Shown piece after piece: positions 19,336 to 48,836 of a stretch of 64,000 nucleotides of DNA. Location of the stretch: NCBI GenBank assembly GCA_036229005.1, contig JAZAMN010000022.1, positions 6,572-70,571 of the forward strand, given 5' to 3'. Both the position numbers and the translations under genes were made by a program. The DNA comes from Myxococcota bacterium (GTDB lineage: Bacteria > Myxococcota_A > UBA796 > CAJQPC01). Below the pieces are notes generated by a model. It was not told the origin of the DNA. It worked only from the letters and a program-made list of their open reading frames with translations, and ran no database searches. How positions within the stretch are numbered: position 1 is the first letter of the stretch; each line of letters starts with the position of its first letter.

Positions 19336-19680
19336 CTACAGGAGTCCGCCCCACTGCTGCTCGGTGTAGGCGCTGCAGGTGGCCTCGTCTGCGGAGAGAT
19401 CAGCGAGGCGTTCGCTGCACATGGATTCGGTGCGGTGGGCCGCAGAGGGGTCTCCGGCCGAGATCTCCTCCTCCTCCAACACCAGCAGCTCCCAGGTCCA
19501 GACCTCGCAGGAGGCCTGGAAGTCCTGGCCGTCGCTGTAGCCGGCGTCCTCCCAGCCCAGGCCCCAGTCCTCCAGGCAGGCGCCGTAGAGGCTCTGGGCC
19601 TCCGCGCACATCTGCAGGCAGGGCTCGGGGGCCTGGTCGGGGTGGGCCGCGCAGGCCAGCAGCGACAGCCAGATCGGCAT
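19336..19680 (-). CDS. small Cys-rich lipoprotein (114 aa)
   Basis: MPIWLSLLACAAHPDQ lipobox and 7 Cys. The ATG shares one nt with the upstream stop (TGATG at 19682-19678). Confidence 0.6.
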   Translation of the reverse strand: MPIWLSLLACAAHPDQAPEPCLQMCAEAQSLYGACLEDWGLGWEDAGYSDGQDFQASCEVWTWELLVLEEEEISAGDPSAAHRTESMCSERLADLSADEATCSAYTEQQWGGLL

Positions 19681-20834
19681 CAGTAGAAGGCCATGGAGCT
19701 GATGCCCAGGGTGGAGCTGATGTAGCCCCCCTCAGCGGTCAGGTCAGAGCAGCTGTTGATGTCCACGAGCATGGCGCCGCCGGCCACGCTGTTGGTCCAG
19801 TCGTAGCCCACGGAGATCCAGGCCTCGCCCTTGTTGTTGAGCCAGGGGCCGGAGCTGTAGGGCAGCTCGCCGCCGAGCTGGGTCATGGTCTCGGCGTCAG
19901 CGTCCAGGCAGTAGATCTCGGTGCCGTAGCTGGGGGTGTAGACGGTCATCAGGGCCTTGCCGGCGTCGTTCATGACCATGCCGCCGATGTCGCCGGAGAC
20001 GTCGGACTCGGTCACGATGGGCTCGGAGAGCAGGCCCTCGGAGAGGCTGAGGGTGCGCAGGTCGCCGTCGGGGCTGCCGTACATGCCGGTCTGGACGAAC
20101 ACCACGTCGCTGTCCTGGGGGTGGGCGCTGATGCGGGGGTTGACGCCCACCTCGTGGCTGCCGACGATGGCCTCGGTGGCGCAGTCGATCTCCAGGACCT
20201 GGCCGGGGCCGGCGCTGGCGAAGGTCTCCTGGTCCAGGATCTGGAGGGCAAGGATCAGGCGGTCGCCGTCCTTGATCATCGCGGCGGCTTCAGGCAGGCC
20301 GTCGGCGTCGGCGTAGGCGCTCAGGTCGATGGCGCCCGCGGGGTTGCCCTCGGCGGAGAAGATGGCGACCTTGTCCACGCCGTACTGGCTGACGAAGATC
20401 TTGTCGTCGCAGAAGTAGGCGGCCTGGGGGTTGGAGCCCTCGGCCAGGGAGATCTCCTGGGGGTTGGACCAGTCGCCGATGTCGTAGATGCGCAGGTAGT
20501 CGAAGCCGTAGCGGCCGAGCTGCAGGACCTTGCCCTGGTCCACGGTGACCCAGGCGTCAGAGGCGATGTCGGCCACGTCGGTGGCGTTGCGGCTGTCCAG
20601 CGCGAAGGTGGTCAGGGCGCCCACCGAGTAGTCGGTGGTGGTGGCGATGGCCATGGTGTGCTCGGGGTCGGCGTCCGCGTCGGAGTCGGAGTCGGCGTCC
20701 GAGTCGGCGTCGGCGTCGGCGTCGGCGTCGGTGTCGGCGTCAGCCTCTTCGGTGTCGCCGGTCTCCTCCAGATCGGCGGCGGGGGGGCAGCCCAGCAGGA
20801 CGGCGAGGGACAGGGACAGGGCGGTGAGGGTCAT
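19680..20834 (-). CDS. surface lipoprotein with an acidic D/A/S/T linker and a probable beta-propeller body, btuB-linked
   Basis: MTLTALSLSLAVLLGCPP lipobox, then ETGDTEEADADTDADADADADSDADSDSDADADPEH, then ~330 aa of beta-rich sequence. The ATG overlaps the btuB stop (ATGA 20831-20834). The track ORF 19680..21716 has a spurious N-terminal extension. Confidence 0.75.
   Translation of the reverse strand: MTLTALSLSLAVLLGCPPAADLEETGDTEEADADTDADADADADSDADSDSDADADPEHTMAIATTTDYSVGALTTFALDSRNATDVADIASDAWVTVDQGKVLQLGRYGFDYLRIYDIGDWSNPQEISLAEGSNPQAAYFCDDKIFVSQYGVDKVAIFSAEGNPAGAIDLSAYADADGLPEAAAMIKDGDRLILALQILDQETFASAGPGQVLEIDCATEAIVGSHEVGVNPRISAHPQDSDVVFVQTGMYGSPDGDLRTLSLSEGLLSEPIVTESDVSGDIGGMVMNDAGKALMTVYTPSYGTEIYCLDADAETMTQLGGELPYSSGPWLNNKGEAWISVGYDWTNSVAGGAMLVDINSCSDLTAEGGYISSTLGISSMAFY
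20667..20745 (-). repeat. imperfect hexanucleotide tract (GTCGGC/GTCGGA)n encoding the (DA/DS)n linker
   Basis: Plus-strand 20703-20726 is four perfect consecutive GTCGGC units, flanked by single-base variants. Confidence 0.85.
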
Positions 20835-22864
20835 GGGGTCTCCGGAGAGGGCGACCAGCGCAGGGTCAACAGGACCGTGCGGCCGGGCAGCGGATAGCCG
20901 ACAAAGTCGGTGAGTGGTTGAAGGATCAGGTTGTCGTCCTGGGGATCCAGGACGTTGCGGGCCACGGCCTCGACGCGCTGATCGCGCAGGTTGAGGACCG
21001 AGAGCTCCAGGGAGGGGAGCGCCGGCTTGGGCTGCACCCGCAGGAACACGCCGTGCAGGCTGCGGGGGGGCACCAGGTACCAGTTCGTGCGGTCCCAGTA
21101 GGACTGGGCGCTGTAGCTCCAGGTGTGCCCCAGGCGGACGCGCTCGCCCCAGTGCACCGAGCTGACCTGGGAGAGCTCCCAGAGGGGGATGCGGGGGAGC
21201 TGGTTGTCGGCCACGGCCGGGTCGGCGGTGAGGTTCACGCTCAGGGTGCGGGTCAGGTTGGACTGCAGCGAGACCCAGCCATGGAGCTCGGCGCTCAGGG
21301 CGGCCTCGACCCCCTGCACCCACGCGCGGCCGACGTTGTGGGCCACCAGGGTCTTCTGCGAGTTCTGGCTCCAGGTGATCAGGTTCTCGCTGTTCCGCCA
21401 GTAGTGCCCCAGCTCCAGGCTGCCCTGGATGCCCCAGCTCTGGGGGCTCTGCAGGCGCGCGCCCACGTCGGCCTGCCAGCCGGACTCGGGGGAGAGATCG
21501 GGGTTGCCCACGAGCACGCCGCGGTCCCCGTAGAGCTCTCCAAAGTCGGGGGGGCGCAGATAGCGGCCCGCGCTGGCCTTGAGGATCACCCCCTGGACCG
21601 GCAGGGCAGCCACCCCGATCCGGGGGGTGAACGCCGCCAGCGAGGACACACTGGCGCTGTCCACCCACAGCCCCTGCAGCACGGGGGAGACCCGCAGGCG
21701 CTCCTTGAGCAGCCACAGGTCAGCGGAGGCGGCGGCCCCGGTGGTCCAGCGCAGGTGCTGTTCGGCCTTGGCGCCGGGGTCCATCAGGTCCTGCGCGCTG
21801 GCCTGGTCCAAGCGGCCCCACGCGGTCCCCCGCAGGATCACGCTGGGGCTGGGCGCCCAGGCCACGCTCGCCAGAGTGCCGAGCTGCTGGGTGCTGGTGC
21901 GCTGCTCCCGGGCGCCGAGCACGATCTCCCCCAGGGGGTCATCCAGGGTCTCGACGCGGAGCTGGTGCCAGGCGCGGGCGGAGAGGCTGAGCTGCCCTGT
22001 CCCTGCCTGGGCCTGCAGCCCGACCAGGTTCCGGCGGCTGTCCAGGCGGGTCTGGTAGGAGCGGGCGCCGCTGTGGCCCGCCAGCCCCTCCTCCCGGAGC
22101 ATGGGGGCCCAGAGCAGGCTGAGCTCGGCGGGGCCGACGGGGCGCTCCAGGCGCAGCAGGCCGGAGATCTGGTCGCTGTCGTTGTTCTGGCGGACCTGGA
22201 GGCGGTCGTCCATCAGCGTGTAGCGGGTGCCGCCGTCGTCGAAGTAGGAGAAGTCCCCGTCGGAGTGGAAGGCCTCCCCCAGCACGAGCACGCGGGTCTG
22301 ACCGAGCTGCCCGGCGTGGGAGGCGCCGGCCTTGCGGTATCCAAAGCTGCCCACGCTGCCGTGGACCTGGGTGCCGCGGGCGTCTCCAGGGACCAGGTTG
22401 ACCACGCCGCCGATGGGGGCCGCGCCGAGCTGGGGAGGCGGGTTGCCGCGGTAGATCTCCACCCGCTCGAAGCTGTGCAGCGGCAGCTCGCTGAGGTTGA
22501 CCGCCGCGCTGCCGTCGGGGTTCAGCGGGATCCCGTCCAGGTGGATCTGCACCTGGCGGCTGCTGGAGCCCCGGATGCTGACGGTGGCGTAGTCCCCCAG
22601 GCCGCCCAGGCGGTTGACGGTGGTGCCCGAGGCGCTGTCCACGACCTGCGCGACGTCCCAGCTCGAGGGCAGGCGCTCGTCGACCTGGATGACGGTGACG
22701 GGGGCGGCGCTGCGCTGGGGATCGGCCTGCTCGCTGCGTTCACCGTGGACCTCGATGACGCCGCCGGCCTCCCCTCCCCCATCGGACGCAGCCCCATCGG
22801 ACGCACCGGTGTCTTCCTGGGCGAGCGCCAGGGAGAGCAGCAGGATGGGCGAGATGGGGGACAT
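20831..22864 (-). CDS. btuB: TonB-dependent outer-membrane receptor, BtuB-like
   Basis: Signal peptide MSPISPILLLSLALAQ. Plug-domain motifs VTVIQVDE, TVNRLGGLGDYATVSIRGSSSRQVQIHLDGIPLN and FERVEIYRG. ~600-aa barrel. Directly preceded by a cobalamin riboswitch. Confidence 0.85.
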   Translation of the reverse strand: MSPISPILLLSLALAQEDTGASDGAASDGGGEAGGVIEVHGERSEQADPQRSAAPVTVIQVDERLPSSWDVAQVVDSASGTTVNRLGGLGDYATVSIRGSSSRQVQIHLDGIPLNPDGSAAVNLSELPLHSFERVEIYRGNPPPQLGAAPIGGVVNLVPGDARGTQVHGSVGSFGYRKAGASHAGQLGQTRVLVLGEAFHSDGDFSYFDDGGTRYTLMDDRLQVRQNNDSDQISGLLRLERPVGPAELSLLWAPMLREEGLAGHSGARSYQTRLDSRRNLVGLQAQAGTGQLSLSARAWHQLRVETLDDPLGEIVLGAREQRTSTQQLGTLASVAWAPSPSVILRGTAWGRLDQASAQDLMDPGAKAEQHLRWTTGAAASADLWLLKERLRVSPVLQGLWVDSASVSSLAAFTPRIGVAALPVQGVILKASAGRYLRPPDFGELYGDRGVLVGNPDLSPESGWQADVGARLQSPQSWGIQGSLELGHYWRNSENLITWSQNSQKTLVAHNVGRAWVQGVEAALSAELHGWVSLQSNLTRTLSVNLTADPAVADNQLPRIPLWELSQVSSVHWGERVRLGHTWSYSAQSYWDRTNWYLVPPRSLHGVFLRVQPKPALPSLELSVLNLRDQRVEAVARNVLDPQDDNLILQPLTDFVGYPLPGRTVLLTLRWSPSPETP

Positions 22865-22954
22865 GTCCGGCCGGGGTCGGGGGGCACAGACAGAGGTCCA
22901 CCAAGGCGGTGGTTCCTGAGCCTGTCTGCATCCCCGCAGGCAAGTTCGTGGACG

Positions 22955-23160
22955 CACGCGCAGGCCGGTCTCCTGGCTCCTGGACCCTTGGGCTGGCCTT
23001 CCCGGAGCGCGCTCCAGTGGCAGTCAGCCAAGTCGCTCCCCGGGGGGAGCCGTCCAGTCACAGTGGCGGGGGCCGCGTCGGTTTCACACCGACTTCCCGT
23101 TTCACCCAGAGCGGACTCCGGGCACCTGCGCGTGGTTCAGACGTCAAAGAAGGTGGGCGT
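22955..23160 (-). promoter_or_regulatory. cobalamin (B12) riboswitch upstream of btuB
   Basis: The minus strand reads ...CAGGTGCCCGGAGTCCGCTCTGGGTGAAACGGGAAGTCGGTGTGAAACCGACGCGGCCCCCGCCACTGTGA...CAGGAGCCAGGAGACCGGCCTGC. This is the conserved GGGAAG..GGTG.GAA...GCGG.CCCGCCACTG core plus a B12 box (AGCCAGGAGACCGGCC). Confidence 0.88.
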
Positions 23161-23196: not shown

Positions 23197-24225
23197 CTAG
23201 GGATCCGCGGGGCCCAGGCACGCCAGCAGGCGGTCGCCCTGCGCGGGGGTCTGCGGGCTGATCCGGATGTGCTCAGGCAGACCAAAGGACACGCAACTCC
23301 GGACCACAACCCCTTGGGCCAGCAGGCGCTCAAAGCAGGCCTGGGCACCCGGGGTGCGCACGAGGAAATAGGGCGCGTGACCGCCCTGCACCGCCCAGCC
23401 CAGGTCCGCGATGGCGCCCATCAGGCGCTCCCGCTCCCGCCAGACGGCCGCGATCCCAGGGGCGTAGAGCTGGGGGTGGGAGACCGCGACGGTGGCGGCG
23501 GCCTGGGCCAGGGCGTTGACCCCCCAAGGCAGCAGGAGCGCGCGCACGGCGGCCAGAAAGCCCGGGTCCCCGACGGCGTATCCGACCCGCAGCCCGGCCA
23601 GCGCGTGGTCCTTGGTGAGCGAGCGGAGCACCAGCCGCCCAGGGCGCCAGGCGGGCGCCGGCGGGGGCTGCAGGAAGCCCATGTAGGCCTCGTCGATCAG
23701 CAGCGGGGCGATCCCCTGGAGCTGGGCCAGGATGTCCTCGCTGGTGAGCCGACCTGTGGGGTTGTTGGGGTTGCACACCACGATGAGCTGCGGTGAGCTG
23801 GCCCGCACCCGAGCGGGCAGATCCGCTCCCTCCTGGACCTGGACGGGCTCGGCCCCCGCCTGGAGCACGGCGGCCCGGTATTCGCCGAAGGTGGGCCCGA
23901 CGATGGCCACGCGGTCCCCGGGGCCCACGCAGGCCCGGACGGCGGCGTAGAGCAGCTCGATGGAGCCGTTGCCCACCAGGAGCTGGGCTTGAGGGAGTCC
24001 GGTGTGCGCGCTGAGGGCGGCGAGCAGGCCGGTGCAGTGGGGGTCGGGGTAGGCGCGCACGTCGCAGGCGGCGAGGGCCCGCAGCACGGGCTGCGGCGTC
24101 GGGATGGGCAGCAGGGTGGCCGAGAAGTCGATCAGGGCGTCGGGGTCCAGGCCGCGCGCGGCGAGCTGGCGCTTGCCTCCGTGGGGCACGGGCTGCAGGC
24201 GACGCACCCAGGGCTTGGGGATCAT
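23197..24225 (-). CDS. cobD: threonine-phosphate decarboxylase (class I/II aminotransferase fold)
   Basis: NPNNPTG and SLTKDHALAGLRVGY (PLP-Lys) motifs. 342 aa. The ATG overlaps the cbiZ stop (ATGA 24222-24225). Cob-operon context. Confidence 0.75.
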   Translation of the reverse strand: MIPKPWVRRLQPVPHGGKRQLAARGLDPDALIDFSATLLPIPTPQPVLRALAACDVRAYPDPHCTGLLAALSAHTGLPQAQLLVGNGSIELLYAAVRACVGPGDRVAIVGPTFGEYRAAVLQAGAEPVQVQEGADLPARVRASSPQLIVVCNPNNPTGRLTSEDILAQLQGIAPLLIDEAYMGFLQPPPAPAWRPGRLVLRSLTKDHALAGLRVGYAVGDPGFLAAVRALLLPWGVNALAQAAATVAVSHPQLYAPGIAAVWRERERLMGAIADLGWAVQGGHAPYFLVRTPGAQACFERLLAQGVVVRSCVSFGLPEHIRISPQTPAQGDRLLACLGPADP

Positions 24226-24881
24226 GGGGACTCCAGGCAGGCGCGCCCGCCAGCGCGCACGGCATCCAGCACGCAGCGGCCCACCGCGCTGCCGATGGCG
24301 GTGTGTTTTCCGGCGAACGCAAGGGGGGCGGCGCCGGTGAGGGGCGCGGCGACCACGACGCAGTCGGTCCCGGTGCCGGTGGCGCGGTCTCCGGAGCGGA
24401 CGCTGGCCACGCCCAGCTCGTGTACGGCCAAGGTGCGGGCCTCGACGGCCAGGCTCAAGACCTCCAGCAGCGCGGCGGCGCTCAGAGGCTGGCCCACCTG
24501 GACCAGGAGGTTGATGGTCCCGGCCACAGGCGCCAACCCCGGGGGATCCCCGATCCGGAGCCGGTTGCCCAGCCCCACGGTGGCCACGCACTCCGCGGCG
24601 GCGCGCTCCCCCTGGTGCTCCAGCTCGGCCCGGCAGTGGACCACCCGCGAGACGGAGGCCGAGGTCAGCAGCCCCACGGCCTCCGGTCGCCCACAGCCGC
24701 TCAGAGCCCCGCGCAGCAGCGCGCCCGCGTCCACATCCAGGCCCAGATCGCCGTCGCGCACCTGCCGCCAGACCACGGCCTGGGCCTCCCGCAGGCCGCC
24801 GCCCTCCAGCGCCCAGCTCAGGACCCGGTGGGGCGCGCCCAGGTCGACCGCCAAGATCGGCGGGCGCAGGCTCAGCTCCAC
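24222..24881 (-). CDS. cbiZ: adenosylcobinamide amidohydrolase
   Basis: CbiZ-like motifs GTINLLV, ATGTGTDCVVV and AGKHTAIGSAVG. The proposed GTG 24881 overlaps the cbiB 3' end by 10 nt, so the start is uncertain. Confidence 0.65.
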   Translation of the reverse strand: MELSLRPPILAVDLGAPHRVLSWALEGGGLREAQAVVWRQVRDGDLGLDVDAGALLRGALSGCGRPEAVGLLTSASVSRVVHCRAELEHQGERAAAECVATVGLGNRLRIGDPPGLAPVAGTINLLVQVGQPLSAAALLEVLSLAVEARTLAVHELGVASVRSGDRATGTGTDCVVVAAPLTGAAPLAFAGKHTAIGSAVGRCVLDAVRAGGRACLESP

Positions 24882-25789
24882 AGCGCCCCCAGGACGGCAG
24901 CCGTCAGGCCCCCATGGAGCAGCATCGCCCGCTGGGAGAGGGTGCAGGCCAGCCTCAGATCCGCCGCACCGCAGGCCCGCCCCGGGGCGCCCAGGGTGTA
25001 GTGCCCCGGCTTGTCCAGGCGCACCCCGAGCAGCCCGGCCATCGTCGCCATCGGCCACCCCGCGTTGGGGCTGGAGGTGACCCGGCGGTCGCGCCAGAGG
25101 GTCCGGAGCCCCCCACGCACCGAGGCCTGGGGCACGCTCAAGCCCACCAGCAAGAGCCACAGCGCGGTCAACCGCGCCGGGAGCAGGTTCAGCAGGTCGT
25201 CCAGGCGGGCGGCGGGCTTGCCCAGCCACTCGTAGCGGGGGGTGCGGTAGCCGATCATCGCGTCCAGGGTGTTCACGCAGCGGTAGGCCAGCAGCGCGGG
25301 CAGGCCGAGCTCCAGGGGGCTCCCCAGCACCAGCCAACACAGGGGCGCGACCAGGCTGTCCGAGGCGTTCTCCGCGATGCTCTCCGTCGCCGCCGCCGCG
25401 AGCTGGGGGGCCGTCAGCGCCTGCGGATCCCGACTGCACAGCCAGGACAGTCCGCCCCGAGCGGCCTCCAGGTCCCCCGCCTCCAGCGCGTCCGCCACCC
25501 GGTGCCCCGCCGACACCAGCCCCCACCACGAGAAGCCCGAGGTCAGCAGCCAGAGCGCCAGGACCGGTCCCGCCCAAGGCACCCGCTCCAAGAGCCCCAG
25601 CGCGGAGAAGGCCAGCGGGAGCCCCAGCGCCATCGCCGTGCCGTGGAGCAGCGCGCCGACCCGCCCCGCAGGCGCCCGCTCCCGGAGCCAGCCGACGGCG
25701 TTGCCCATCCACACCACCGGGTGGACCTTGAGGGGGGGCTCACCCACCCGATCCAAGGCCAGCGCCCCGAGCAGCAAGAGCCCGCTCAC
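24872..25789 (-). CDS. cbiB: adenosylcobinamide-phosphate synthase
   Basis: HPVVWMGN, ENASDSLVAPL and NAGWPMATMAGLLGVRL motifs, with multiple TM helices. The GTG overlaps the cobS stop (GTGA 25786-25789). Confidence 0.85.
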   Translation of the reverse strand: MSGLLLLGALALDRVGEPPLKVHPVVWMGNAVGWLRERAPAGRVGALLHGTAMALGLPLAFSALGLLERVPWAGPVLALWLLTSGFSWWGLVSAGHRVADALEAGDLEAARGGLSWLCSRDPQALTAPQLAAAATESIAENASDSLVAPLCWLVLGSPLELGLPALLAYRCVNTLDAMIGYRTPRYEWLGKPAARLDDLLNLLPARLTALWLLLVGLSVPQASVRGGLRTLWRDRRVTSSPNAGWPMATMAGLLGVRLDKPGHYTLGAPGRACGAADLRLACTLSQRAMLLHGGLTAAVLGALWS

Positions 25790-26529
25790 AGCAGGCCGAA
25801 CCCCGCCAGCACCAGCAGCTCCGTGCCCACGCAGGCGGCCCCCAACAGGTCCCCGGTGATCCCCCCCAGGCGCCGCCGGAACCACAGGCCCAGCAGGAGG
25901 GTGAGGATCCCGGCGCCCAGCAACAGCAGCCCACCCATGGGCCCCAACAGCGCGCCGCACAGCCCGACAACCACCCCAAAAGCGAGGACAGACCGTCCCC
26001 ACCCCAGCCCCGGCACCATGCGGTCGGCCAGGCCCTTGTTCTCCTGCCGGGCGTAGGGCAGCGCGGCCATGAGCAGCAGGGTGGACCAGCGGCCCAGGGC
26101 GTGGGCGAGCAGCAGCGCGGGCAGCCACTGGGCGGGCTCCAGGGCGCGCAGGGCCTCCAGGCGCAGGGCGAAGGCCACGACCACCGCGACCACCCCGTAG
26201 GCCCCCACCCGGCTGTCCCGGAAGATACGCAGGGCGCTCTCCCGATCCCGCCCGCCGCCCAGGCCATCGGCGGTGTCGGCCAGGCCGTCTTCGTGCAGCG
26301 CGCCCGTGAGCAGCGGACCGAGCGAAAGCACGCCCAGCGCCACGCTCAACCCCGGCGACAGGCCCAGGGTGTGCAGGCCCAGCGCAGCGCCGCCCAGGGC
26401 GGCCCCGATCCCCGCGCCCACCACCGGGAACCAGGGCGTGGCGCGGGCCAGGTCGTCCTCGCGGTAGTCGCGGGGCCACCCCAGGGGGATGCGCGTCAGG
26501 AAGGTGATGGCGGTGGCCAGGCCTCTCAT
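25786..26529 (-). CDS. cobS: adenosylcobinamide-GDP ribazoletransferase (cobalamin synthase)
   Basis: FLTRIP and LTGALHEDGLADTADG motifs. 247-aa polytopic membrane protein. Confidence 0.9.
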   Translation of the reverse strand: MRGLATAITFLTRIPLGWPRDYREDDLARATPWFPVVGAGIGAALGGAALGLHTLGLSPGLSVALGVLSLGPLLTGALHEDGLADTADGLGGGRDRESALRIFRDSRVGAYGVVAVVVAFALRLEALRALEPAQWLPALLLAHALGRWSTLLLMAALPYARQENKGLADRMVPGLGWGRSVLAFGVVVGLCGALLGPMGGLLLLGAGILTLLLGLWFRRRLGGITGDLLGAACVGTELLVLAGFGLL

Positions 26530-26536
26530 GCGGGGC

Positions 26537-27571
26537 TCACTCCGGGGGCGGTCCGGCGGCGGCCAGGACCTCCTGGAGGGTGGCCATCTCCGACATCACG
26601 GCGCAGGCGGAGCGCAGCATGGGCAGGCAGAGGGCGGCGCCGCTGGCCTCGCCGAGGCGCAAGCCCCAGTCCAGCAGGGCCTCGCCGGCGCCCAGAGCCT
26701 CCAAGATGGCCCGGTGGCCAGGCTCAGCGGAGGCGGTGGCCGGTCGAATGAAGCGGGCCAGGGATCCCCTCCCCTTCACCGCGCAGAGCGCCGCAGCGCC
26801 CACGATGAAGCCGTCCAACAACACGGGGATGCCCCGCTCGGCGGCTCCTTCGATGCAGCCGGCGATCGCGGCGAGCTCCAAGCCCCCCAGATCGGCCATC
26901 GCGGCCCAGGGGTCGCTGGGGCCATCGCGGTCCAGGGCGGCCTGCACGACGGCGACCTTGTGGGCGACACCCGCCGGGTCCAGGCCCGTCCCGGGGCCCA
27001 CCATCTCCTGCGCGGAGCGGCCCAGCAGGCGGGCGGAGAGCGCAGCGGCGGGGGTGGTGTTGCCGATGCCCATCTCGCCGAGGGCGAGCACCTGGATCCC
27101 GTCCCGGGCGGCCCGCTCGGCGGCGTCCACACCGGCCTGTCGCGCGGCCTGGAGCTGCTCGGGGGTCAGCGCGGGGCCCAGCATCAGGTCGGCGCTGCCC
27201 CGGGCCACCTTGGCGTTCACCACGGACACGCCGGGGGCGGGCGCAGGCAGCACGTCCAGGCCGGCCACGCCCACGTCCACGACCTCCAGCTCCGCGCCCG
27301 CCTGGCGCGCCAGAACGGACACCGCCGCCTTGCCCGCCGCGAAGGTGTGCACCATCGCCACGGTCACCGCCTGCGGGTAGGGACTCACGCCCTGCGCCAC
27401 CACGCCGTGATCGCCGGCGAACACGACCACGCGGGCCTTGTCGGCCTGGGGCATCGGGGTGTCCTGACACTCGGCCAGCCACAGGGCCAGCGCCTCCAGC
27501 CGCCCCAGGCTGCCGGGGGGCTTGGCCAGGGAATCCAGGTGGGCCTGCGCGGCCTCCACGCTCTCGCTCAT
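26537..27571 (-). CDS. cobT: nicotinate-nucleotide--dimethylbenzimidazole phosphoribosyltransferase
   Basis: LAKPPGSLGRLE, FAGDHGV, GEMGIGNTT and LDGFI motifs. Confidence 0.9.
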   Translation of the reverse strand: MSESVEAAQAHLDSLAKPPGSLGRLEALALWLAECQDTPMPQADKARVVVFAGDHGVVAQGVSPYPQAVTVAMVHTFAAGKAAVSVLARQAGAELEVVDVGVAGLDVLPAPAPGVSVVNAKVARGSADLMLGPALTPEQLQAARQAGVDAAERAARDGIQVLALGEMGIGNTTPAAALSARLLGRSAQEMVGPGTGLDPAGVAHKVAVVQAALDRDGPSDPWAAMADLGGLELAAIAGCIEGAAERGIPVLLDGFIVGAAALCAVKGRGSLARFIRPATASAEPGHRAILEALGAGEALLDWGLRLGEASGAALCLPMLRSACAVMSEMATLQEVLAAAGPPPE

Positions 27572-28077
27572 CGCGTCTCCTTCAGGGTGAGGACCTGCCC
27601 CAGAGCCACCAGCTCCACGCGGTCACAGAGTTCAGCCAGGCGCTGGCCCAGGAAGCCGGCCTCATCGCGGAAGCGGCGCGCCAGGGGGTTCAGGGGGACG
27701 ATGCCCAGCCCGACCTCGTTGGTGACCAGGATGACGGGGTTGGGCGCAGCCTGCAGCGCATCGGCCAGAGCGGTGAAGTCGGCATCCAGCGGGCCCTCCT
27801 TCCGCTCGTGCAGCAGGTTCGAGACCCAGAGCGTCAGGCAGTCCAGGAGCACGACCTTGCCGGGCTGGTGCAGGTGGGGGGCCACGTCGATGGGGGCCTC
27901 GATGGTGGTCCAGCCGGCGCCGCGGTCCGCCTGGTGTCGGGCGATGCGGTCGGTCATCTCGGCGTCGAAGGCCTGTCCGGTCGCCAGGTAGACGCGCTCG
28001 GGGGCCAAAGACTCGGCCAGGGCCTGGGCGCGGCGGCTCTTCCCGCTGCGGGCGCCGCCGGTGATGAGGGCCTTCAT
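27568..28077 (-). CDS. cobU: bifunctional adenosylcobinamide kinase / adenosylcobinamide-phosphate guanylyltransferase
   Basis: P-loop ITGGARSGKS, plus LLDCLTLW and VTNEVGLGIVP motifs. The ATG overlaps the upstream stop (ATGA 28074-28077). Confidence 0.9.
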   Translation of the reverse strand: MKALITGGARSGKSRRAQALAESLAPERVYLATGQAFDAEMTDRIARHQADRGAGWTTIEAPIDVAPHLHQPGKVVLLDCLTLWVSNLLHERKEGPLDADFTALADALQAAPNPVILVTNEVGLGIVPLNPLARRFRDEAGFLGQRLAELCDRVELVALGQVLTLKETR

Positions 28078-28742
28078 GGGGTGCCTCCAAGGGGCAGGGC
28101 GTGGGCCGTCTGCAGGGGACTCAGGGGCACGCGCGCGTCCCACTCCACCCGCTCGATGCGGTCGAAGGACAGGGGAATGGGGGGCAGCGCGCGCAGCGCG
28201 GAGAGCGCCTGGACGATGGGCCCGGTGGGGGTGGCCGGGTGGAAGAGCCCCACGGTGACGTGCGGCGCGTAGGGCGAGAAGCGCAGGTCCCGAGAGCCCT
28301 GGGAGAGGCGGGCTCTGAGGCCCTCCAGAGCGCCTTCGGCGTCGTCCACCTCCAGGACCGCGCAGCCCTCGAAGCAGCTCGCCGATCCCACCCGCAAGCG
28401 AGGACAGGCTGCCCCGCTCAGGGCCTGGGCCTGCGCCGCGAGCTGGCCGGCGTCCACGCTGTCCTCCACCCACCCGGGGGGCAAGGGCTCGGCGCTGGGG
28501 CCGTCCACGAAGCCGGCTACCCACACGGTGATGTGCAGGTCGCTGCTGGGTAGCGGGCGCAGCCACGGAGACAGCGCCTGGGCCACCTGCCGGACGCGCC
28601 GAACCGCCTCGGATGCGCCCACCCGCAGCACCCACGCGGAATAGCGCGCGCGCCCCCGCAGCCAGGCCTGTCGGCCACCCGGCGGGGGATCTGCGGTGTG
28701 GGGCAGCGCGCAGAAGCGCGCCCAGGCGGCCGGCCAGTCCAT
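28074..28742 (-). CDS. 2H phosphoesterase superfamily (LigT/CPDase-like) protein embedded in the cobalamin operon
   Basis: Two H-h-T-h motifs about 95 aa apart (SDLHITVWVAG and APHVTVGLF). 222 aa. Start and stop both overlap neighbouring cob genes (TGATG at 28744-28740; ATGA at 28074-28077), which supports this being the translated frame. Confidence 0.65.
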   Translation of the reverse strand: MDWPAAWARFCALPHTADPPPGGRQAWLRGRARYSAWVLRVGASEAVRRVRQVAQALSPWLRPLPSSDLHITVWVAGFVDGPSAEPLPPGWVEDSVDAGQLAAQAQALSGAACPRLRVGSASCFEGCAVLEVDDAEGALEGLRARLSQGSRDLRFSPYAPHVTVGLFHPATPTGPIVQALSALRALPPIPLSFDRIERVEWDARVPLSPLQTAHALPLGGTP

Positions 28743-29344
28743 CAGAACTCGACGCCCTTGCGCGCCCGGATGCCGGCGTCGAAGGCGTGCTTGACCAGGG
28801 TGTGCTCGGTGACGGTGTCGGCGGCGTCGATCACGGCCTGGGGCGCGTTGCGGCCGGTGACCACGATGGAGACGTGCTCGGGCTTGTTGCGGAGCACCTG
28901 GGCGACCTCGTCGGCGTCCAGGTAGTCGTAGCGCAGGGCGATGTTCAGCTCGTCCAGCACCACCACGTCGTGGGCGCCGCCCTGGATGAACTCCTTGGCC
29001 ATCGCCCAGCCCCGCTCAGCCGCGGCGATGTCCTTGGCGCGGTCCTGGGTGTTCCAGGTGAAGCCCTCGCCGGAGACCACGTGGGTGATCTCGGGGAAGC
29101 GCTTGAGGGCGGCCTGCTCGCCGGTCTTCCAGGTGCCCTTGATGAACTGGACGACGGCCACCTGCTGGCCGTGCCCGGCGGCGCGGATTGCCACCCCAAA
29201 GCCAGCGGTGGACTTGCCCTTTCCGTCACCGGTGTGGACGATCACCACGCCGCGCTTGATGTCCTTGGAGCGCGCCTTGGCGTCCTGCTCGGCCTTGAGG
29301 GCGGCCATGGCGGCCTTGTGCTCTTGTTCGGTGGGCTGGCTCAT
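28742..29344 (-). CDS. cobO: cob(I)yrinic acid a,c-diamide adenosyltransferase (CobA/CobO/BtuR type)
   Basis: HTGDGKGKSTAGFG P-loop, plus VVQFIKG and LDELN motifs. Confidence 0.9.
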   Translation of the reverse strand: MSQPTEQEHKAAMAALKAEQDAKARSKDIKRGVVIVHTGDGKGKSTAGFGVAIRAAGHGQQVAVVQFIKGTWKTGEQAALKRFPEITHVVSGEGFTWNTQDRAKDIAAAERGWAMAKEFIQGGAHDVVVLDELNIALRYDYLDADEVAQVLRNKPEHVSIVVTGRNAPQAVIDAADTVTEHTLVKHAFDAGIRARKGVEF

Positions 29345-30291
29345 TGGGGGCTCCGGGGGTGGACACGGGGTTGCAGCTCCTGGGCGGTCTTGAGCACGCC
29401 CAGGCCGGGGTCATTGGGGTAGCTGGGGGGCAGCTCGACGATCCGCCCGCCTTCGTGGCAGGCGCGGAGCTGCTCCAGGATGGAGTGCCGGCAGATGGTC
29501 GGGGTGCTGCCGCTGGGGGCCAGGATCAGGGGGGGATCCAGGGCCAGCAGGTCCTCGGCGCTGTAGCGGGGCCACATCTGGTGGCCGGCGTCCGCCGCCA
29601 CGTCGTGGATGCCGCTCAGGCGCAGCATGTCGCCGTAGCTGGTGCCTTGGGTGCCGCCGTACCAGGCGTCCCCAATGACGCTCAAGTAGATGCCGTCGAT
29701 GCGCTGGTCGGGCGGAACGGCCAGCTCCAGGGCGCGCTCCTGCAGGTCCAGGCTGCGCAGCAGGGCGTCTCCGCGGGCCGGGGCGCCGACGAGCTGGGAG
29801 AGCAGGCGGATGTCCTCGCGGGTGGACTCCAGACCGTACATGCCGCCCAGGTCGAAGGTGGGGATGCCCTCCTCCTCCAAGCGGGCGAGCAGCGCAGCGT
29901 CCACAAAGTTGGAGACGATCACCAGGTCGGGCTGGGCGCGGAGGATGGCCTCCAGGCGGTTGTTCTGTCCGATGGGGATCTGGGCGGAGAAGCGCCAGCC
30001 CTCGGAGTTGCCGGCGACGTTGGCCTCGGTGATGGCCACGAGCCGGCTGGGCTCCACCAGCTCCAGCAGCAGGTGGTCGGCGACCATGTGCAGGGAGACG
30101 ATGCGCTGGTAGTCGGCCACGGGGACGGCGATCCCGCGGCCATCCACGACCTCGGTGAGCGCGGCGGTGCTCTGGGCGGTGGACACGGAACCGGTGACCT
30201 CGGCGGCGGGCGGCGCAGCCCACATGGCCCCGGCCACCGAGCCCGCCAGAGCGGTGAGGAGCAGAGCCCCGTTGAGCAGCTCAGCCTTCAC
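29341..30291 (-). CDS. btuF: ABC-transporter periplasmic binding protein, BtuF/FecB class
   Basis: Signal sequence, then RIVSL...VAIT...PDLVIVSNF and PPLILAP patterns typical of cluster-8 binding proteins. Coupled by ATGA overlaps on both sides. Confidence 0.7.
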   Translation of the reverse strand: MKAELLNGALLLTALAGSVAGAMWAAPPAAEVTGSVSTAQSTAALTEVVDGRGIAVPVADYQRIVSLHMVADHLLLELVEPSRLVAITEANVAGNSEGWRFSAQIPIGQNNRLEAILRAQPDLVIVSNFVDAALLARLEEEGIPTFDLGGMYGLESTREDIRLLSQLVGAPARGDALLRSLDLQERALELAVPPDQRIDGIYLSVIGDAWYGGTQGTSYGDMLRLSGIHDVAADAGHQMWPRYSAEDLLALDPPLILAPSGSTPTICRHSILEQLRACHEGGRIVELPPSYPNDPGLGVLKTAQELQPRVHPRSPQ

Positions 30292-31028
30292 TCCCCCTCC
30301 CCGGGCAGCGACCAGGACGGGGCCTGGCCGGGGTGCATCTGGACGCCGTAGACCTGCAGGATGGGCTCGGGGGCGACGATCCCGGAGACCGGTCCGAAGG
30401 CGTGGACGCGGCCCTCGTGCAGGAGCACGGCGTCGTCGGCGTGGCGCTGGGCCTCGGCGAGATCGTGGAGGACGGAGACCACCAGGTGGCCCTGGTCGGC
30501 GAGCTCCCGCAGCACGCGGTGGATGGCGAGGGCGTGGCCCAGGTCCAGGGCGGAGGTGGCTTCGTCCAACAGCAGGGTGGTGGCGCCGACGGCCAGGGCG
30601 CGGGCCAGCAAGACGCGCTGCCGCTCGCCGCCGGAGAGCTGGGTGAAGGGGCGCTCCGCCAGGGCGGTGATCGAGACGCGCTCCATGGCCTGGTCCACCT
30701 GCTTGCGGCCGCCGCCGCCGTGGACGAAGCGGCCCAGGGCGACCACCTCGCGCACGGAGAGGGGGGCGTTGAGCAGGCTGCGCTGGGGCACGTAGGCGAC
30801 GCGGCGGGCGCGCTCGGGGGGCGACAGGGCGCCCAGCTCCTGGCCGTCCAGGGTGATGCGGCCCTGGCTGGGGAGCAGGCCCAGGATGGCCTTGAGCAGG
30901 GTGCTCTTGCCGACGCCGTTGGGGCCCAGCAGGGCGGTGATCCGGCCGCGCTCCAGGCGCAGGTCCACGCCGTCAAAGACCTGGTGGTCGCGGTGTCCGG
31001 CGCGCAGGCCGTGGAGCTCCAGGCTCAT
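30288..31028 (-). CDS. btuD: ABC transporter ATP-binding protein, BtuD/FecE class
   Basis: Walker A GPNGVGKST, signature LSGGERQR and Walker B LLLDEATSALD. Only the C-terminal 246 codons of track ORF 30288..32183 are real. Confidence 0.9.
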   Translation of the reverse strand: MSLELHGLRAGHRDHQVFDGVDLRLERGRITALLGPNGVGKSTLLKAILGLLPSQGRITLDGQELGALSPPERARRVAYVPQRSLLNAPLSVREVVALGRFVHGGGGRKQVDQAMERVSITALAERPFTQLSGGERQRVLLARALAVGATTLLLDEATSALDLGHALAIHRVLRELADQGHLVVSVLHDLAEAQRHADDAVLLHEGRVHAFGPVSGIVAPEPILQVYGVQMHPGQAPSWSLPGEGE

Positions 31029-32026
31029 CCCAGCCTCCCCTGGCGGGCGGCGCGGGCCAGCAGGAAGAGGAACACGGGGGCGCCGACCAGGCCGGTGACG
31101 ACGCCCAGGGGGAGCGCGCCGGTGGTGGGGGCCAGGCGGACGATGAGGTCGGCCCAGAGGACGAACGCGGCGCCCCCGACGGCGGCGGCGGGGAGCAGGC
31201 GGCGGTGGCCGGCGCCCAGGAAGGGACGGAGGCCGTGGGGGACGACCAACCCGACGAAGCTGAGGCCGCCCCCGATGGCGACGGCGGCGGCGGTGAGGGT
31301 GGCGGTCCAGACGATGACCCAGCGGCGCACGCGGGGGACGTTGACGCCCAGAGAGGCGGCCTCGTCTTCGCCGGCCAGCAGCACGTCCAGGTGGCGGGAC
31401 CAGCCCATGCCCGCGGCGAGTCCGGCGGCGACCAGGGGGAAGGCCAGCGCGACGTGCCGAGCGCCCTTGGTGTCGATGCCGCCCAGGGTGAAGGCGACCA
31501 CGGCGCGGCCCAGCTCCCAGTTGTCCTGGGCGATGCTCATCATCAGGCCGCCCACGCTCAGGAAGAGGCTGCTGAGGATGAAGCCGGTGAGCAGGGTGGC
31601 CACCATGCCGGGGTTGCGCCCGCTGACCAGCAGCAGGAGCATCAGCGCGCCCCAAGCGCCCAGCAGGCACCCCAGGGGCAGCAGCAGCTCGGGGGGCAGG
31701 AAGCCCGGCAGCACGGCGGCCAGCAGGCCCTCCCACGCGACCATCACCAGCATGCCACCCAGGCTCGCGCCGGCGGTCGTGCCCAGGATCGAGGGGCTGG
31801 CCAAGGGGTTCCGGAACAGGCCCTGCACCAGCACGCCGCCCACAGCCAGGGCCGCCCCCGCCAGGCAGGCGTTGAGCACGCGCCAGAGCCGCAGGCGGAA
31901 CAGGGTCTGCTCCAGCGCGCCCTGCTCCTGGCCGGAGCCCAGCCACAGCGCCAGGCCCACCCCGCCAAAGAACAGGAGCAGGAGCACGGTCCAGACGCCC
32001 AGGACGCCGCGGGGAGGAGCGCTCAA
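31025..32026 (-). CDS. btuC: FecCD-family ABC permease, BtuC-like
   Basis: 333 aa, ~9-10 TM helices, with NPLASPSILG and GxxxFVGLVVPH motifs. Confidence 0.88.
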   Translation of the reverse strand: MSAPPRGVLGVWTVLLLLFFGGVGLALWLGSGQEQGALEQTLFRLRLWRVLNACLAGAALAVGGVLVQGLFRNPLASPSILGTTAGASLGGMLVMVAWEGLLAAVLPGFLPPELLLPLGCLLGAWGALMLLLLVSGRNPGMVATLLTGFILSSLFLSVGGLMMSIAQDNWELGRAVVAFTLGGIDTKGARHVALAFPLVAAGLAAGMGWSRHLDVLLAGEDEAASLGVNVPRVRRWVIVWTATLTAAAVAIGGGLSFVGLVVPHGLRPFLGAGHRRLLPAAAVGGAAFVLWADLIVRLAPTTGALPLGVVTGLVGAPVFLFLLARAARQGRLG

Positions 32027-32089
32027 GGGTGCAGGGGGAGTGGGGGGCCAAGGGGCCCAGAGAGTCGCCGCATCCTTCCCTCCGAAGGA

Positions 32090-32300
32090 CTGGGGTGATC
32101 GCAGAGGCCGGTCTCCTCGCTCCCGCTGATGAGTCTCGGGGACTCCTCGCGCCGCGCCTTCCCAGGGGAGTCCCCAGTGGCATGTGCGGTGCGATTCAGC
32201 GGTCAGAGTGGCGGGGGCCGCGCCGGTTCGCGGAGGCCCCCAGGGGGGCGCGCGTCCGGACTTCCCGTTTCATCCCCGAAGGGACACCTCTGCTGGGTCA
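32090..32300 (-). promoter_or_regulatory. cobalamin (B12) riboswitch upstream of the btuC-...-cobD operon
   Basis: The minus strand reads CAGAGGTGTCCCTTCGGGGATGAAACGGGAAGTCCGG...AACCGGCGCGGCCCCCGCCACTCTGACC...GGGAGCGAGGAGACCGGCCTCTGC, with a B12 box (AGCGAGGAGACCGGCC). Confidence 0.88.
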
Positions 32301-32349
32301 ATGAACTGGCGCCTGTCCTAGCGTGCGCTCCCCCCCCTCGCAAGCGCGC

Positions 32350-32931
32350 TCAGAAGCTCATCACCCCCACGTTGACCGCCGCGTAGGGCGCCTCCAGCCG
32401 CACCAGGGGCCCATCTTCGTTGAACAGCGAGGGCACCATGCCCAGCTCCGGCGCGATGAAGAGCTCCCGCTCCCCCACCCGCTTGCGGAACTCCAGGCCC
32501 ATGCCGACCTCGCCCACCGGGACCACCATGTTGGTGCCACCCTCCGGCGTGCCGTACACAAAGCCGGCGCTCAGGTGCAGGTAGGCGCCCCGGCTCTGCG
32601 ACTGCTCAAAGCGCATGTTGTAGTCGATCACCGGCCCCCAGGCGTAGGGCGGCGGGTCGTCCCCAGCCAGGCTGCCGGTGGGGATGTCGTGCATGTAGAC
32701 CGCGCGCAGGCCCAGCGTCTGCCCGTCGCCGATGTCCAGGCCCAGGCCGATGCTGGCCGCCGGGATGTCGCCCTTGGCCCCGAAGGGCACCGCGAAGGCG
32801 CCGCGCGTCAGCACGTAGAAGGGGCGCTCCTCGGGGGTTTGGGGGCTGGTGACCTCGCTGGCGGGCGGGGGTGCAGAGGGCTCCGGCGGGGACTGGGCCA
32901 GAGCGGTGGGGATCAGGATGGCGAACAGCAT
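32350..32931 (-). CDS. small outer-membrane beta-barrel-like protein, paralog B (ends ...VGVMSF)
   Basis: Signal peptide MLFAILIPTALAQ, a P-rich linker, alternating beta-strand pattern and a C-terminal Phe. The start abuts the upstream stop. Confidence 0.6.
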   Translation of the reverse strand: MLFAILIPTALAQSPPEPSAPPPASEVTSPQTPEERPFYVLTRGAFAVPFGAKGDIPAASIGLGLDIGDGQTLGLRAVYMHDIPTGSLAGDDPPPYAWGPVIDYNMRFEQSQSRGAYLHLSAGFVYGTPEGGTNMVVPVGEVGMGLEFRKRVGERELFIAPELGMVPSLFNEDGPLVRLEAPYAAVNVGVMSF

Positions 32932-33480
32932 TCAGCCCCCCTTCTTGGGGTCGAAGATCATGCCGACCGTGATGCTGGTGTAGGGCGCCTTGGCCCCCGG
33001 CACGACCCCCATCTCCGGGGAGATGAAGAGGCGGTCCCCCGAGTCCAGCTCCCGCACGGCCCGGGCGCCGAAGCCCGCCTCCAGGATGGGCAGGACGATG
33101 TTCTCCTTGCCGTCCTCGGCCGCGTAGACAAAGCCCAGGGACAGGCAGGGGTAGAAGTTGACGTTGCGCCCCGGGTTCAGGTGGAACTGGTAGTCCAGCA
33201 CCGGGCCCCAGGCCTGCTCCACGTCGCGCTGGTTGCCCGAGATGGGGTTGGCCGGCGGGTTGACCATGTAGATGGCGCGCAGGCCGAAGGTGTGGCCGTT
33301 CTCCAGCTCGACCCCCATGGCGACCCCGGCGGTGGGGACCTGCCCCAAGCCTCCGCTGGGCACCGCGACCGAGGCGCGCGTGGCCATGTAGGTGGGCCGC
33401 GGCGGCGGGGCGTCCGGGGCGTCCGGGGTGTCGGCCGCGCTGGCGGTCTGGAGGGAGGCGAGGAGGATGGTGGTGAACAT
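32932..33480 (-). CDS. small outer-membrane beta-barrel-like protein, paralog A
   Basis: MFTTILLASLQTASA signal peptide. Collinear similarity with paralog B (e.g. FGLRAIYMVNPP vs LGLRAVYMHDIP; LFISPEMGVVPG vs LFIAPELGMVPS). AGGAG lies 6 nt upstream. Confidence 0.6.
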   Translation of the reverse strand: MFTTILLASLQTASAADTPDAPDAPPPRPTYMATRASVAVPSGGLGQVPTAGVAMGVELENGHTFGLRAIYMVNPPANPISGNQRDVEQAWGPVLDYQFHLNPGRNVNFYPCLSLGFVYAAEDGKENIVLPILEAGFGARAVRELDSGDRLFISPEMGVVPGAKAPYTSITVGMIFDPKKGG

Positions 33481-43634: not shown

Positions 43635-44558
43635 ATGGCAGGCCGCAAGCCGCCTTGGCTCAAGGTCAAGTTCCCCTCAGGCGAGCGCCAGGCTCGCTTC
43701 GCGCGCATCAAGAGCCGGGCCCGCGAGCTCAAGCTCCACACCGTGTGCGAAGAGGCCCAGTGCCCCAACCAGGGCGAGTGCTGGGGCGGAGGCACCGCCA
43801 CCTTCATGGTGATGGGCGACATCTGCACCCGCGGCTGCCGCTTCTGCGCCGTGAACACCCGCCGCAACGGCCCCCCTCTGGACCCCGACGAGCCCGCCAA
43901 CGTCGCCTCCGCCATCGCCGAGATGCAGCTTGACTACGTGGTCCTCACCAGCGTCAACCGCGACGACCTGGACGACCAGGGCGCCGGGCACTTCGCCGCC
44001 TGCATCGAGGCCATCCACACGGCCGCCCCCGACACCATGGTCGAGGTCCTCACCCCCGACTTCCGGGGCCGCATGGACCTGGTGGATCTGGTGCTGAACG
44101 CGCGCCCCACCGTCTACGCGCACAACATCGAGACCATCGAGCGCCTGCAGCGCCCCGTGCGCGACCCCCGGGCCAACTACAAGCAGTCCATGGACGTGCT
44201 GGCCCGGGTCAAGGAGCACGATCCCCGGAACTTCTCCAAGTCCTCCATCCAGGTGGGCCTGGGCGAGAAGGAGGCCGAGGTCCTCCAGACCATGCAGGAT
44301 CTGCGCGACGTCGGGGTGGACTTCCTCACCCTGGGGCAGTACCTGCAGCCCACGCAGAAGCACCTCAAGGTCGACGAGTTCATCCCCCCACAGGTCTTTG
44401 ACTGGTACGCCGAGCGCGGCCGGGAGATGGGCTTCAAGTACGTGGCCTCCGGTCCCCTGGTCCGGTCCAGCTACAAGGCGGGCGAGTTCTTCATCCGCGA
44501 GTTCATCGAAAAGCAGCAGCAGGACCCCACCGCATGGCAGAAGCCGCTGGCGCGCTGA
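43635..44558 (+). CDS. lipA: lipoyl synthase
   Basis: CEEAQCPNQGECW and radical-SAM CTRGCRFCAV motifs. 307 aa. Confidence 0.93.
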   Translation: MAGRKPPWLKVKFPSGERQARFARIKSRARELKLHTVCEEAQCPNQGECWGGGTATFMVMGDICTRGCRFCAVNTRRNGPPLDPDEPANVASAIAEMQLDYVVLTSVNRDDLDDQGAGHFAACIEAIHTAAPDTMVEVLTPDFRGRMDLVDLVLNARPTVYAHNIETIERLQRPVRDPRANYKQSMDVLARVKEHDPRNFSKSSIQVGLGEKEAEVLQTMQDLRDVGVDFLTLGQYLQPTQKHLKVDEFIPPQVFDWYAERGREMGFKYVASGPLVRSSYKAGEFFIREFIEKQQQDPTAWQKPLAR

Positions 44559-45427: not shown

Positions 45428-45436
45428 GGAGTCTGC

Positions 45437-46699: not shown

Positions 46700-47382
46700 T
46701 GAGCATGCGCCAGGCCCTCAGTCAGGTCCGCGATGCTGGCCAGGCCCTCGCCGAGACCGGCGCGCTGGCCACCCCGGTCCAGGGCCTGGAGGCCGTCATC
46801 GTGGGCGGCTTCTCCGGCATGTCCTCCAAGGACTGGATCGTGCCGGGCCTGCGCGAGCGCGCTGGCGCCGTCCTGCGCGGCTGCTCCGTCGAGCGCCTCC
46901 AGGCCCCCCACGCCGGCGCCCGCCCCTACCGCATCGCCCCGGTGTCCGCCGACCCCGCCGCCCGCATGCTGCACGCCTGCGGCCTGGCCATGGCCATGCG
47001 CGACCAGGACCTCTCGGTCCTCTGCTTCGTCGGCCAGGGCAGCGCCTCCTACGGCGCCTTCCACGAGGCCATGAACATGGCCGTCCTGCACCGCCTGCCC
47101 GTGGTCTTCCTGGCCCACCACTGGGACCTGGACGACCCCGAGAGCCCCCTGAGCCCCCAGGTCGCCGGGTCCATGCAGGGCCTCGCCCTGGCTCACGGAC
47201 TGCGCCCCCACTCGGTGGACGGCGGCCTCGTGACCGAGGTGCTCAGCGCCGTCGCCGAGGCCCGCGCCCACAGCGGCCCCTCCTTCATCGAGGCCCGCTT
47301 GCTCCGCGGCGAGGACCCCCTGCGCCGCGCCTACGACGAGCTCACCGAGAACGAGCCCGCCGCCTCCAACCAGCTTTCCTGA
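46699..47382 (+). CDS. short, degenerate E1 alpha-subunit-like protein (TPP-motif ligands substituted)
   Basis: 227 aa, aligning with the C-terminal two-thirds of E1-alpha. The TPP motif GDG-X27-NN reads GQGSASYGAFHEAMNMAVLHRLPVVFLAHH (D->Q, NN->HH). SVDGG...GPSFIEA is conserved. The start shares a base with the E2 stop. Confidence 0.65.
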   Translation: MSMRQALSQVRDAGQALAETGALATPVQGLEAVIVGGFSGMSSKDWIVPGLRERAGAVLRGCSVERLQAPHAGARPYRIAPVSADPAARMLHACGLAMAMRDQDLSVLCFVGQGSASYGAFHEAMNMAVLHRLPVVFLAHHWDLDDPESPLSPQVAGSMQGLALAHGLRPHSVDGGLVTEVLSAVAEARAHSGPSFIEARLLRGEDPLRRAYDELTENEPAASNQLS

Positions 47383-47415
47383 ATCCCCCCCGAAATTCGC
47401 CCAACGGAGTTCCTC

Positions 47416-48836
<1,421 letters not shown>

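Follow-up and report, generated by a model that had tools for sequence, protein, structure and literature searches.

We analysed a 64-kb stretch of a Myxococcota bacterium genome (64,000 nucleotides of contig JAZAMN010000022.1, assembly GCA_036229005.1; hereafter the window), which encodes a protein of the 2H phosphoesterase superfamily within a cobalamin (vitamin B12) operon. The 222-amino-acid protein is the product of an ATG-initiated open reading frame (ORF) at 28074..28742 on the minus strand, the strand that carries the whole operon, and its gene is number 5 of 12 in the order riboswitch-btuC-btuD-btuF-cobO-2H-cobU-cobT-cobS-cbiB-cbiZ-cobD. A cobalamin riboswitch aptamer forms the operon head (32089..32306; RF00174, full model, 79.7 bits against a gathering score of 31.5). 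The transport genes follow: a btuC-like FecCD permease, the first gene of the operon (31025..31987; PF01032), whose domain match and coordinates come from L001, a locus 99.7% identical to the window that was the source of some gene assignments; a btuD-like ABC ATPase with a 4-base overlap on both sides (30288..31028; PF00005); and a btuF-like periplasmic binding protein (29341..30291; PF01497, E 7.9e-15). The cobO/btuR corrinoid adenosyltransferase (28742..29344; PF02572, E 2.9e-66; NF004637, 259 bits) precedes the 2H gene, and downstream of it lie the cobU adenosylcobinamide kinase/guanylyltransferase (27568..28077; PF02283, E 8.2e-58), the cobT lower-base phosphoribosyltransferase (26537..27571; PF02277, E 6.4e-117; TIGR03160), the cobS cobalamin-5'-phosphate synthase (25786..26529; PF02654, E 1.1e-49), the cbiB adenosylcobinamide-phosphate synthase (24872..25789; PF03186, E 6.8e-79; TIGR00380), and the cbiZ adenosylcobinamide amidohydrolase (24222..24881; PF01955, E 1.9e-48). 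The last gene encodes a cobD-type threonine-phosphate decarboxylase (23197..24225; PF00155), for which the best NCBIfam model, TIGR01140, scores 241 bits, under its cut-off of 290. Genes overlap by 1-10 bases at 10 of 11 junctions, the remaining one being a 7-base gap between cobT and cobS. Two assemblies encode a 97%-identical 2H protein in the same operon.

The initial annotation, made from the sequence alone, had described a tightly coupled operon encoding CobO, CobU, CobT, CobS, CbiB, CbiZ and CobD around the 2H gene, and all of these assignments are confirmed by Pfam and NCBIfam. Beyond this, the operon begins further upstream, with btuC, btuD and btuF behind the riboswitch, and a second cobalamin riboswitch (22946..23144, minus strand; RF00174, 106.3 bits) heads a receptor operon with a btuB-like TonB-dependent receptor (20831..22864, minus strand; PF07715 and PF00593 in L001). 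The window carries a complete gene set for uptake, salvage and the nucleotide loop. No corrin-ring genes were found among the 39 of 47 window genes, called by G+C content at third codon positions (GC3), that were scanned with Pfam; of the eight left out, five are wrong-strand shadows or mis-extended ORFs that replace cobU, cobT, cbiB, cbiZ and btuC/btuD in the GC3 call. After the receptor gene lie genes for a 384-amino-acid predicted lipoprotein with an acidic D/A/S-rich linker (19680-20834, minus strand) and a 114-amino-acid protein (19336-19680, minus strand); neither has a Pfam match, and both may be surface B12-capture proteins. Just upstream of the operon riboswitch are two adjacent paralogous genes (32350-32931 and 32932-33480, minus strand) for proteins of 193 and 182 amino acids with signal-peptide-like N-termini and without Pfam match.

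The 2H gene is co-translated with its cob neighbours. The stop codon of cobO (TGA, 28744-28742) and the 2H start codon (ATG, 28742-28740) form TGATG with one base, 28742, in common, and the 2H stop codon (TGA, 28076-28074) overlaps the start of cobU (ATG, 28077-28075) in the ATGA at 28077-28074, just as the two junctions of the 222-amino-acid ORF had been read initially. The window is 72% G+C and has long spurious ORFs in all frames. A chance ORF is nevertheless ruled out for the 2H gene by its homologues, its Pfam score and its codon-position G+C (0.77, 0.60 and 0.89 at the first, second and third positions), which is a coding signature. Between the window and L001, whose 2H protein is 97% identical, the gene shows 6 non-synonymous against 6 synonymous codon differences, none of them at a conserved position, compared with ratios of 0:8 in cobO, 3:14 in cobT and 0:0 in cobS.

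The protein contains the two catalytic motifs of the 2H superfamily, L-H70-I-T72-V-W and P-H161-V-T163-V-G; both are intact as first noted, although they are 91 residues apart and not about 95. It matches PF13563 (2_5_RNA_ligase2) at 41.2 bits (gathering score 27, E 2.2e-10). The sole other Pfam match, PF02834 (LigT_PEase, 20.5 bits), is under its cut-off of 23.3, and none of the NCBIfam models matches. An alignment-based AlphaFold2 (AF2) model has a predicted local distance difference test score (pLDDT) of 95.1 and a predicted template-modelling score of 0.91, and supersedes a single-sequence model with pLDDT 36. The model shows the bilobed alpha+beta fold with pseudo-twofold symmetry, and a Foldseek search of the PDB at E<=1e-3 retrieved 2H proteins exclusively (the top 45 are all 2H), at 9-17% identity. 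The matches include LigT, plant cyclic phosphodiesterase (CPDase), TT0787, P. horikoshii 1vdx, AKAP18, USB1, ASCC1 and Acb1, while a sequence search of the PDB gave no match. The predicted 2H fold with an intact catalytic tetrad is therefore confirmed by both profile and model, in agreement with the superfamily assignment first made from the motifs.

Homologue searches by word index returned 1 protein for the single sequence and 8 for a 60-sequence profile, and the size of the family is taken from an exhaustive HMMER scan of cluster representatives at 50% identity: about 311 representatives pass E<=1e-3 and 143 pass E<=1e-10, most of them over the full length. W27, R31, H70, T72, G77, F78 and H161 are invariant in the 60-sequence alignment, and G30, Y34, W37, R49, D94, F124, R143, R154, P160, T163 and G165 are nearly so (T163 is at least 90% conserved). 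The tetrad H70, T72, H161 and T163 is conserved in all 26 sequences that we labelled by genomic context. The family signature reads W-x-x-G-R-x-x-[YF]-x-x-W ... H-x-T-x-x-x-x-G-F ... P-H-x-T-x-G, and its extra N-terminal motif, W27-x-x-G30-R31-x-x-Y34-x-x-W37, is family-specific and invariant. Judged by these sequence features, the protein is a member of a remote, separate 2H subfamily with its own N-terminal extension. No informative extra domain was found in the long members of the family. Membership in the CobC, CobZ, CbiR or CbiZ families was considered and is ruled out, the respective domains being absent: His_Phos_1 (PF00300), the NCBIfam CobC model and the RHG motif were not found in the protein, there is no Pfam match to a PgpA-type domain (CobZ) or an AP_endonuc_2 domain (CbiR), and the NCBIfam CbiS model matches the separate cbiZ gene alone, over its hydrolase half.

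The 2H gene is immediately upstream of cobU in six lineages, the window and five others; the proteins of these five share 39-51% identity with the window protein and among themselves. The arrangement is cobO-2H-cobU-cobT-cobS in the window, 2H-cobU-cobT-cobS with a 4-base overlap in L003 (NCBI metagenome-assembled genome GCA_964599085.1), 2H-cobU-cobT after valS in L029, cobT-2H-cobU-cobS in L034, and cobS-2H-cobU-cobT in L035. L032 has 2H-cobU directly behind the 3' part of a cobalamin aptamer (46 bits), and its available DNA ends inside cobU. The 2H-cobU junction is thus constant, and in five of the six lineages the two genes overlap by 4 bases, while cobT, cobS, cobO and the transporter genes change place. 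Two lineages show riboswitch control, the window at the head of the operon and L032 with the 2H gene as the first gene after the aptamer; no riboswitch was found in the sequence examined around L003, L029, L034 and L035. The related genomes were sampled with the pattern WHRGRxRYAV and are biased towards that motif variant, and a scan of metagenomes contributed one informative locus. Within this sample, 6 of about 17 lineages of the Myxococcota-type clade are linked, always to cobU, and none of 14 loci of a proteobacterial clade is. The linkage to cob genes expected from the window therefore recurs in five other lineages, one of them behind a riboswitch, but it does not extend to the whole family, about 11 close and 14 distant loci being unlinked.

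The constancy of the 2H-cobU pair fits a product-to-substrate relation between the 2H protein and the CobU kinase. It also weakens the proposal in the initial annotation that the enzyme processes the fragment released by CbiZ, because the constant partner is cobU and cbiZ was not found around L003, L029, L034 and L035, four of the five other linked loci (L032, which ends inside cobU, was not counted for cbiZ). No 2H-CobU fusion was found among the 120 best matches to a concatenated 2H and CobU query; 119 of these are CobU homologues, none of which is matched by the hidden Markov model of the 2H family. Separately, CobU homologues were seen fused to CobT, CbiZ, a BluB-like nitroreductase domain, PF13366 or an unannotated C-terminal region of about 300 amino acids (the last in P0166 and P0191; the fusion proteins are P0156, P0157, P0228, P0268, P0189, P0270, P0166 and P0191).

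One function is conspicuous by its absence from the linked operons. In L003, L034 and L035 they consist of cobU, cobT, cobS and the 2H gene, and CobC is the one function absent. That the window operon lacks CobC and CobZ had been noted before, and neither was detected across the 64 kb: no histidine-phosphatase, HAD or PgpA/CobZ-type phosphatase is present among the Pfam-scanned genes, and no RHG motif occurs in six-frame translations of the window or of any linked locus. The 2H protein could thus replace CobC by dephosphorylating alpha-ribazole-5'-phosphate and/or adenosylcobalamin-5'-phosphate, the sole nucleotide-loop step without a gene in these operons. Non-orthologous substitutes for CobC are known (CobZ) or have been proposed (cblZ and cblXY) (PMC7617358; PMC8620254); PMC8620254 mentions cblZ and cblXY as CobC alternatives put forward earlier. 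Moreover, solved 2H domains bind 5'-mononucleotides, as in the AKAP18-AMP and USB1-AMP/UMP structures among the Foldseek matches. We rank this replacement as the main rival of our preferred reading but consider it rather unlikely, as it needs phosphomonoesterase chemistry. To our knowledge, characterised 2H enzymes all act on phosphodiesters or cyclic phosphates beside a ribose hydroxyl, and we know of none that hydrolyses a 5'-phosphomonoester. The local absence of cobC is a weak sign, since this gene frequently lies elsewhere in a genome or gives way to unspecific phosphatases. Furthermore, cobU is the constant neighbour, whereas the substrates would be made by CobS and CobT, and the invariant residues are retained in the proteobacterial relatives from Pseudomonas/Stutzerimonas-group genomes, which presumably carry a canonical CobC.

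Some two thirds of the relatives in the sample lie away from cob genes. The 11 unlinked loci of the Myxococcota-type clade have neighbours that include an FAD oxidase, a fatty-acid hydroxylase, a GDSL lipase, YaeQ, PPK2 and a Na/H antiporter, and SNF2 helicase, SerRS and GGDEF proteins are further neighbours of unlinked relatives. The proteobacterial clade, sampled at 14 loci (Pseudomonas/Stutzerimonas, Oryzomicrobium, Algiphilus and others), is unlinked throughout. No neighbour conserved across the family was found. A neighbour-joining tree with 200 bootstraps separates the proteobacterial clade alone (98%) and gives no resolution inside the other clade, and among the 26 context-labelled sequences no residue distinguishes linked from unlinked members. 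One distant member, in the chromosome of an Algiphilus sp. (L028, 9917-17740), follows serS about 3 kb from a unit of cobalamin riboswitch and TonB receptor, with a cobO match about 1.3 kb further. We did not count this locus as B12-linked: the 2H gene is convergent with the adjacent btuD/btuC and on a separate transcript, so that the proximity may be a coincidence.

These heterogeneous contexts, together with the lack of residues that tell linked from unlinked members and a somewhat relaxed constraint relative to the neighbouring genes, would suit a 2H enzyme with a housekeeping task on RNA ends or cyclic nucleotides, a passenger in the cob operon with no role in B12 metabolism. Such a passenger is improbable, because six lineages with identities as low as about 40% keep the gene in a tight, mostly overlapping position in front of cobU although the surroundings are reshuffled, and because two of these lineages place the gene under riboswitch control, one of them directly after the aptamer.

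A second context recurs among the unlinked Myxococcota-type loci. In two of the 11 loci, which represent two lineages, a response-regulator GGDEF diguanylate cyclase is encoded directly upstream of the 2H gene (L031, 917-3132; L036, 763-2872). Identity between the two is 52% for the 2H proteins and 51% for the GGDEF proteins, and the junction in L031 is an ATGA overlap. The product of diguanylate cyclases also has 3'-phosphodiesters with a free 2'-OH, which hints that some family members act on 3'-phosphodiesters of the cyclic di-GMP type and supports a reading in which the window protein acts on the equivalent bond of a cobamide.

Our preferred reading, to which we give a probability of about 0.35, is that the 2H protein is an active, metal-independent phosphodiesterase that was recruited to the nucleotide-loop branch, where it would act at the ribose-3'-phosphodiester with its free 2'-OH and yield cobinamide for CobU. 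We infer the substrate, the cleaved bond and the products as follows. The target would be the ribose-3'-phosphodiester of the lower nucleotide, whose free vicinal 2'-OH would make it the only bond of the pathway suited to 2H chemistry. One catalytic histidine would activate the 2'-OH and the other would protonate the leaving aminopropanol oxygen, so that an imported or unsuitable cobamide would be converted to adenosylcobinamide and an alpha-riboside 2',3'-cyclic phosphate, the latter perhaps opened afterwards. The CobU kinase would then re-phosphorylate and guanylylate the released cobinamide, and CobT and CobS would install the preferred base. The kinase activity of CobU is required for cobinamide salvage only.

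The same genomic context is shared by another possible role in B12 metabolism, in which the 2H protein would open a 2',3'-cyclic phosphate that arises as a by-product of spontaneous or enzymatic loop cleavage, a healing activity beside the CobU kinase, or would correct 2'-linked loop isomers. Cyclic phosphodiesterase activity predominates in the structural neighbours (LigT/ThpR and the plant and Deinococcus CPDases), and an analogy is offered by fungal and plant tRNA ligases, in which a P-loop kinase and a 2H CPDase form the healing module. This role is purely inferential, however; we know of no such cyclic-phosphate intermediate in cobamide metabolism, and we regard it as unlikely.

Several observations weigh against loop cleavage by the 2H protein. 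CbiZ, encoded in the window, already serves remodelling and makes a second loop-removing enzyme partly redundant, while the last dephosphorylation step is left without an enzyme. The unlinked relatives share the invariant residues, so by sequence the activity may be general rather than cobamide-specific. The 2H gene is under noticeably weaker constraint than its neighbours in the comparison of near-identical strains, and the fusion to CobU that would accord with a shared function is missing from the 120 best matches. The pairing of 2H and cobU could go back to a single ancestral arrangement kept by the overlapping frames, not to six independent events. Finally, the function proposed for the family is drawn from genomic context and chemistry.

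A 2H enzyme in B12 metabolism had been thought undescribed, and our full-text literature search likewise found nothing tying 2H, LigT or PF13563 to cobalamin; this search did not cover the definitions of cblX, cblY and cblZ, one of which might be this 2H family. On present evidence, the family is a new B12-associated variant within a known superfamily, and the data point to an undescribed enzyme in the nucleotide-loop branch of the B12 pathway. CobC is missing from many producers, and late pathway steps have unassigned or variable enzymes; a conserved, partly riboswitch-controlled 2H family that is co-translated with cobU is a candidate for one such gap. CbiZ and CbiR are the only cobamide remodelling enzymes known to us. 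We tentatively suggest, by analogy and with some doubt, that the family could join these two as a third class of enzymes for cobamide remodelling or salvage, with a new mechanism: a metal-independent 2H transesterase in which the lower nucleotide's own 2'-OH would cut the loop as in RNA, giving cobinamide and alpha-riboside 2',3'-cyclic phosphate, and which would make up, with the co-translated CobU, a 'cleave/heal' pair like the kinase-CPDase module of tRNA ligases. Loop cleavage would add a new, bond-specific route for lower-ligand removal, while CobC replacement would provide the first phosphomonoesterase in the 2H superfamily. The cobamides that a microbe makes or remodels shape the cross-feeding of B12 in communities, and a confirmed function for this family would help to predict cobamide metabolism from the genomes of Myxococcota-like bacteria.

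Other genes of the window lie outside the B12 loci. They encode a 1356-amino-acid protein (39459-43529, plus strand) with Asp/Cys-rich repeats of the form DCDD.D..(I/V)(H/N/Y)PGA.E...DG(V/I)D.DCDG, a 1199-amino-acid protein without Pfam match (532-4131, minus strand), a Ser/Thr kinase-FGE-sulfatase fusion and a sigma-54 activator. A housekeeping block on the plus strand (43635-51831) comprises genes for lipoyl synthase, 2-oxoacid dehydrogenase E1/E2/E3, thymidylate kinase and lipoate-protein ligase B, then serS, and at its end (51475-51831) three tRNA genes. Its content, taken with the kinase-FGE-sulfatase fusion and the sigma-54 activator, is in keeping with a Myxococcota-like genome.

Among known systems, the LigT/ThpR and CPDase types (E. 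coli LigT 5ldm, T. thermophilus TT0787 1iuh, the Arabidopsis CPDase 1jh6 and P. horikoshii 1vdx) share with the 2H protein the two H-x-T motifs, the bilobed 2H fold and PF13563, and match it in Foldseek with probability 1.00, E 8.5e-8 to 1e-6 and template-modelling scores of 0.63-0.74 on the target. Identity is only 12-17%, however, and the N-terminus of the 2H protein extends about 40 residues further, with W-x-x-G-R-x-x-Y-x-x-W leading into the first strand; its gene is paired with cobU and not with RNA-repair genes. The proposed mechanism, attack of a 2'-OH on a 3'-phosphodiester to give a 2',3'-cyclic phosphate, resembles that of USB1 and Acb1. Both are among the Foldseek matches, although more weakly (E 1e-4 to 1e-3), and their substrates are RNA 3' ends and cyclic oligonucleotides, not a corrinoid. 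With CobC and CobZ, the 2H protein has in common an operon position and a missing step that is often filled by CobC next to cobU, cobS and cobT, but it lacks His_Phos_1, PgpA and RHG, and its chemistry differs; we know of no phospho-histidine intermediate in 2H enzymes.

A further parallel is CbiR of Akkermansia muciniphila, a member of a nuclease-type superfamily that is encoded in nucleotide-loop operons with cobU, cobT and cobS and starts the replacement of the lower ligand (PMC7733943). This metal-dependent enzyme has an AP endonuclease 2 TIM-barrel and cuts the phosphoribosyl bond to give cobinamide-phosphate and alpha-ribazole (PMC7733943). The precedent supports loop cleavage by the 2H protein, which likewise belongs to a nucleic-acid-type hydrolase superfamily, is encoded among cob genes and would act on the nucleotide-loop phosphate. 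The two proteins have no sequence or Pfam relation. The 2H protein has another fold and no metal requirement and, if the hypothesis holds, would cut the other P-O bond, by way of a 2',3'-cyclic phosphate, to release cobinamide.

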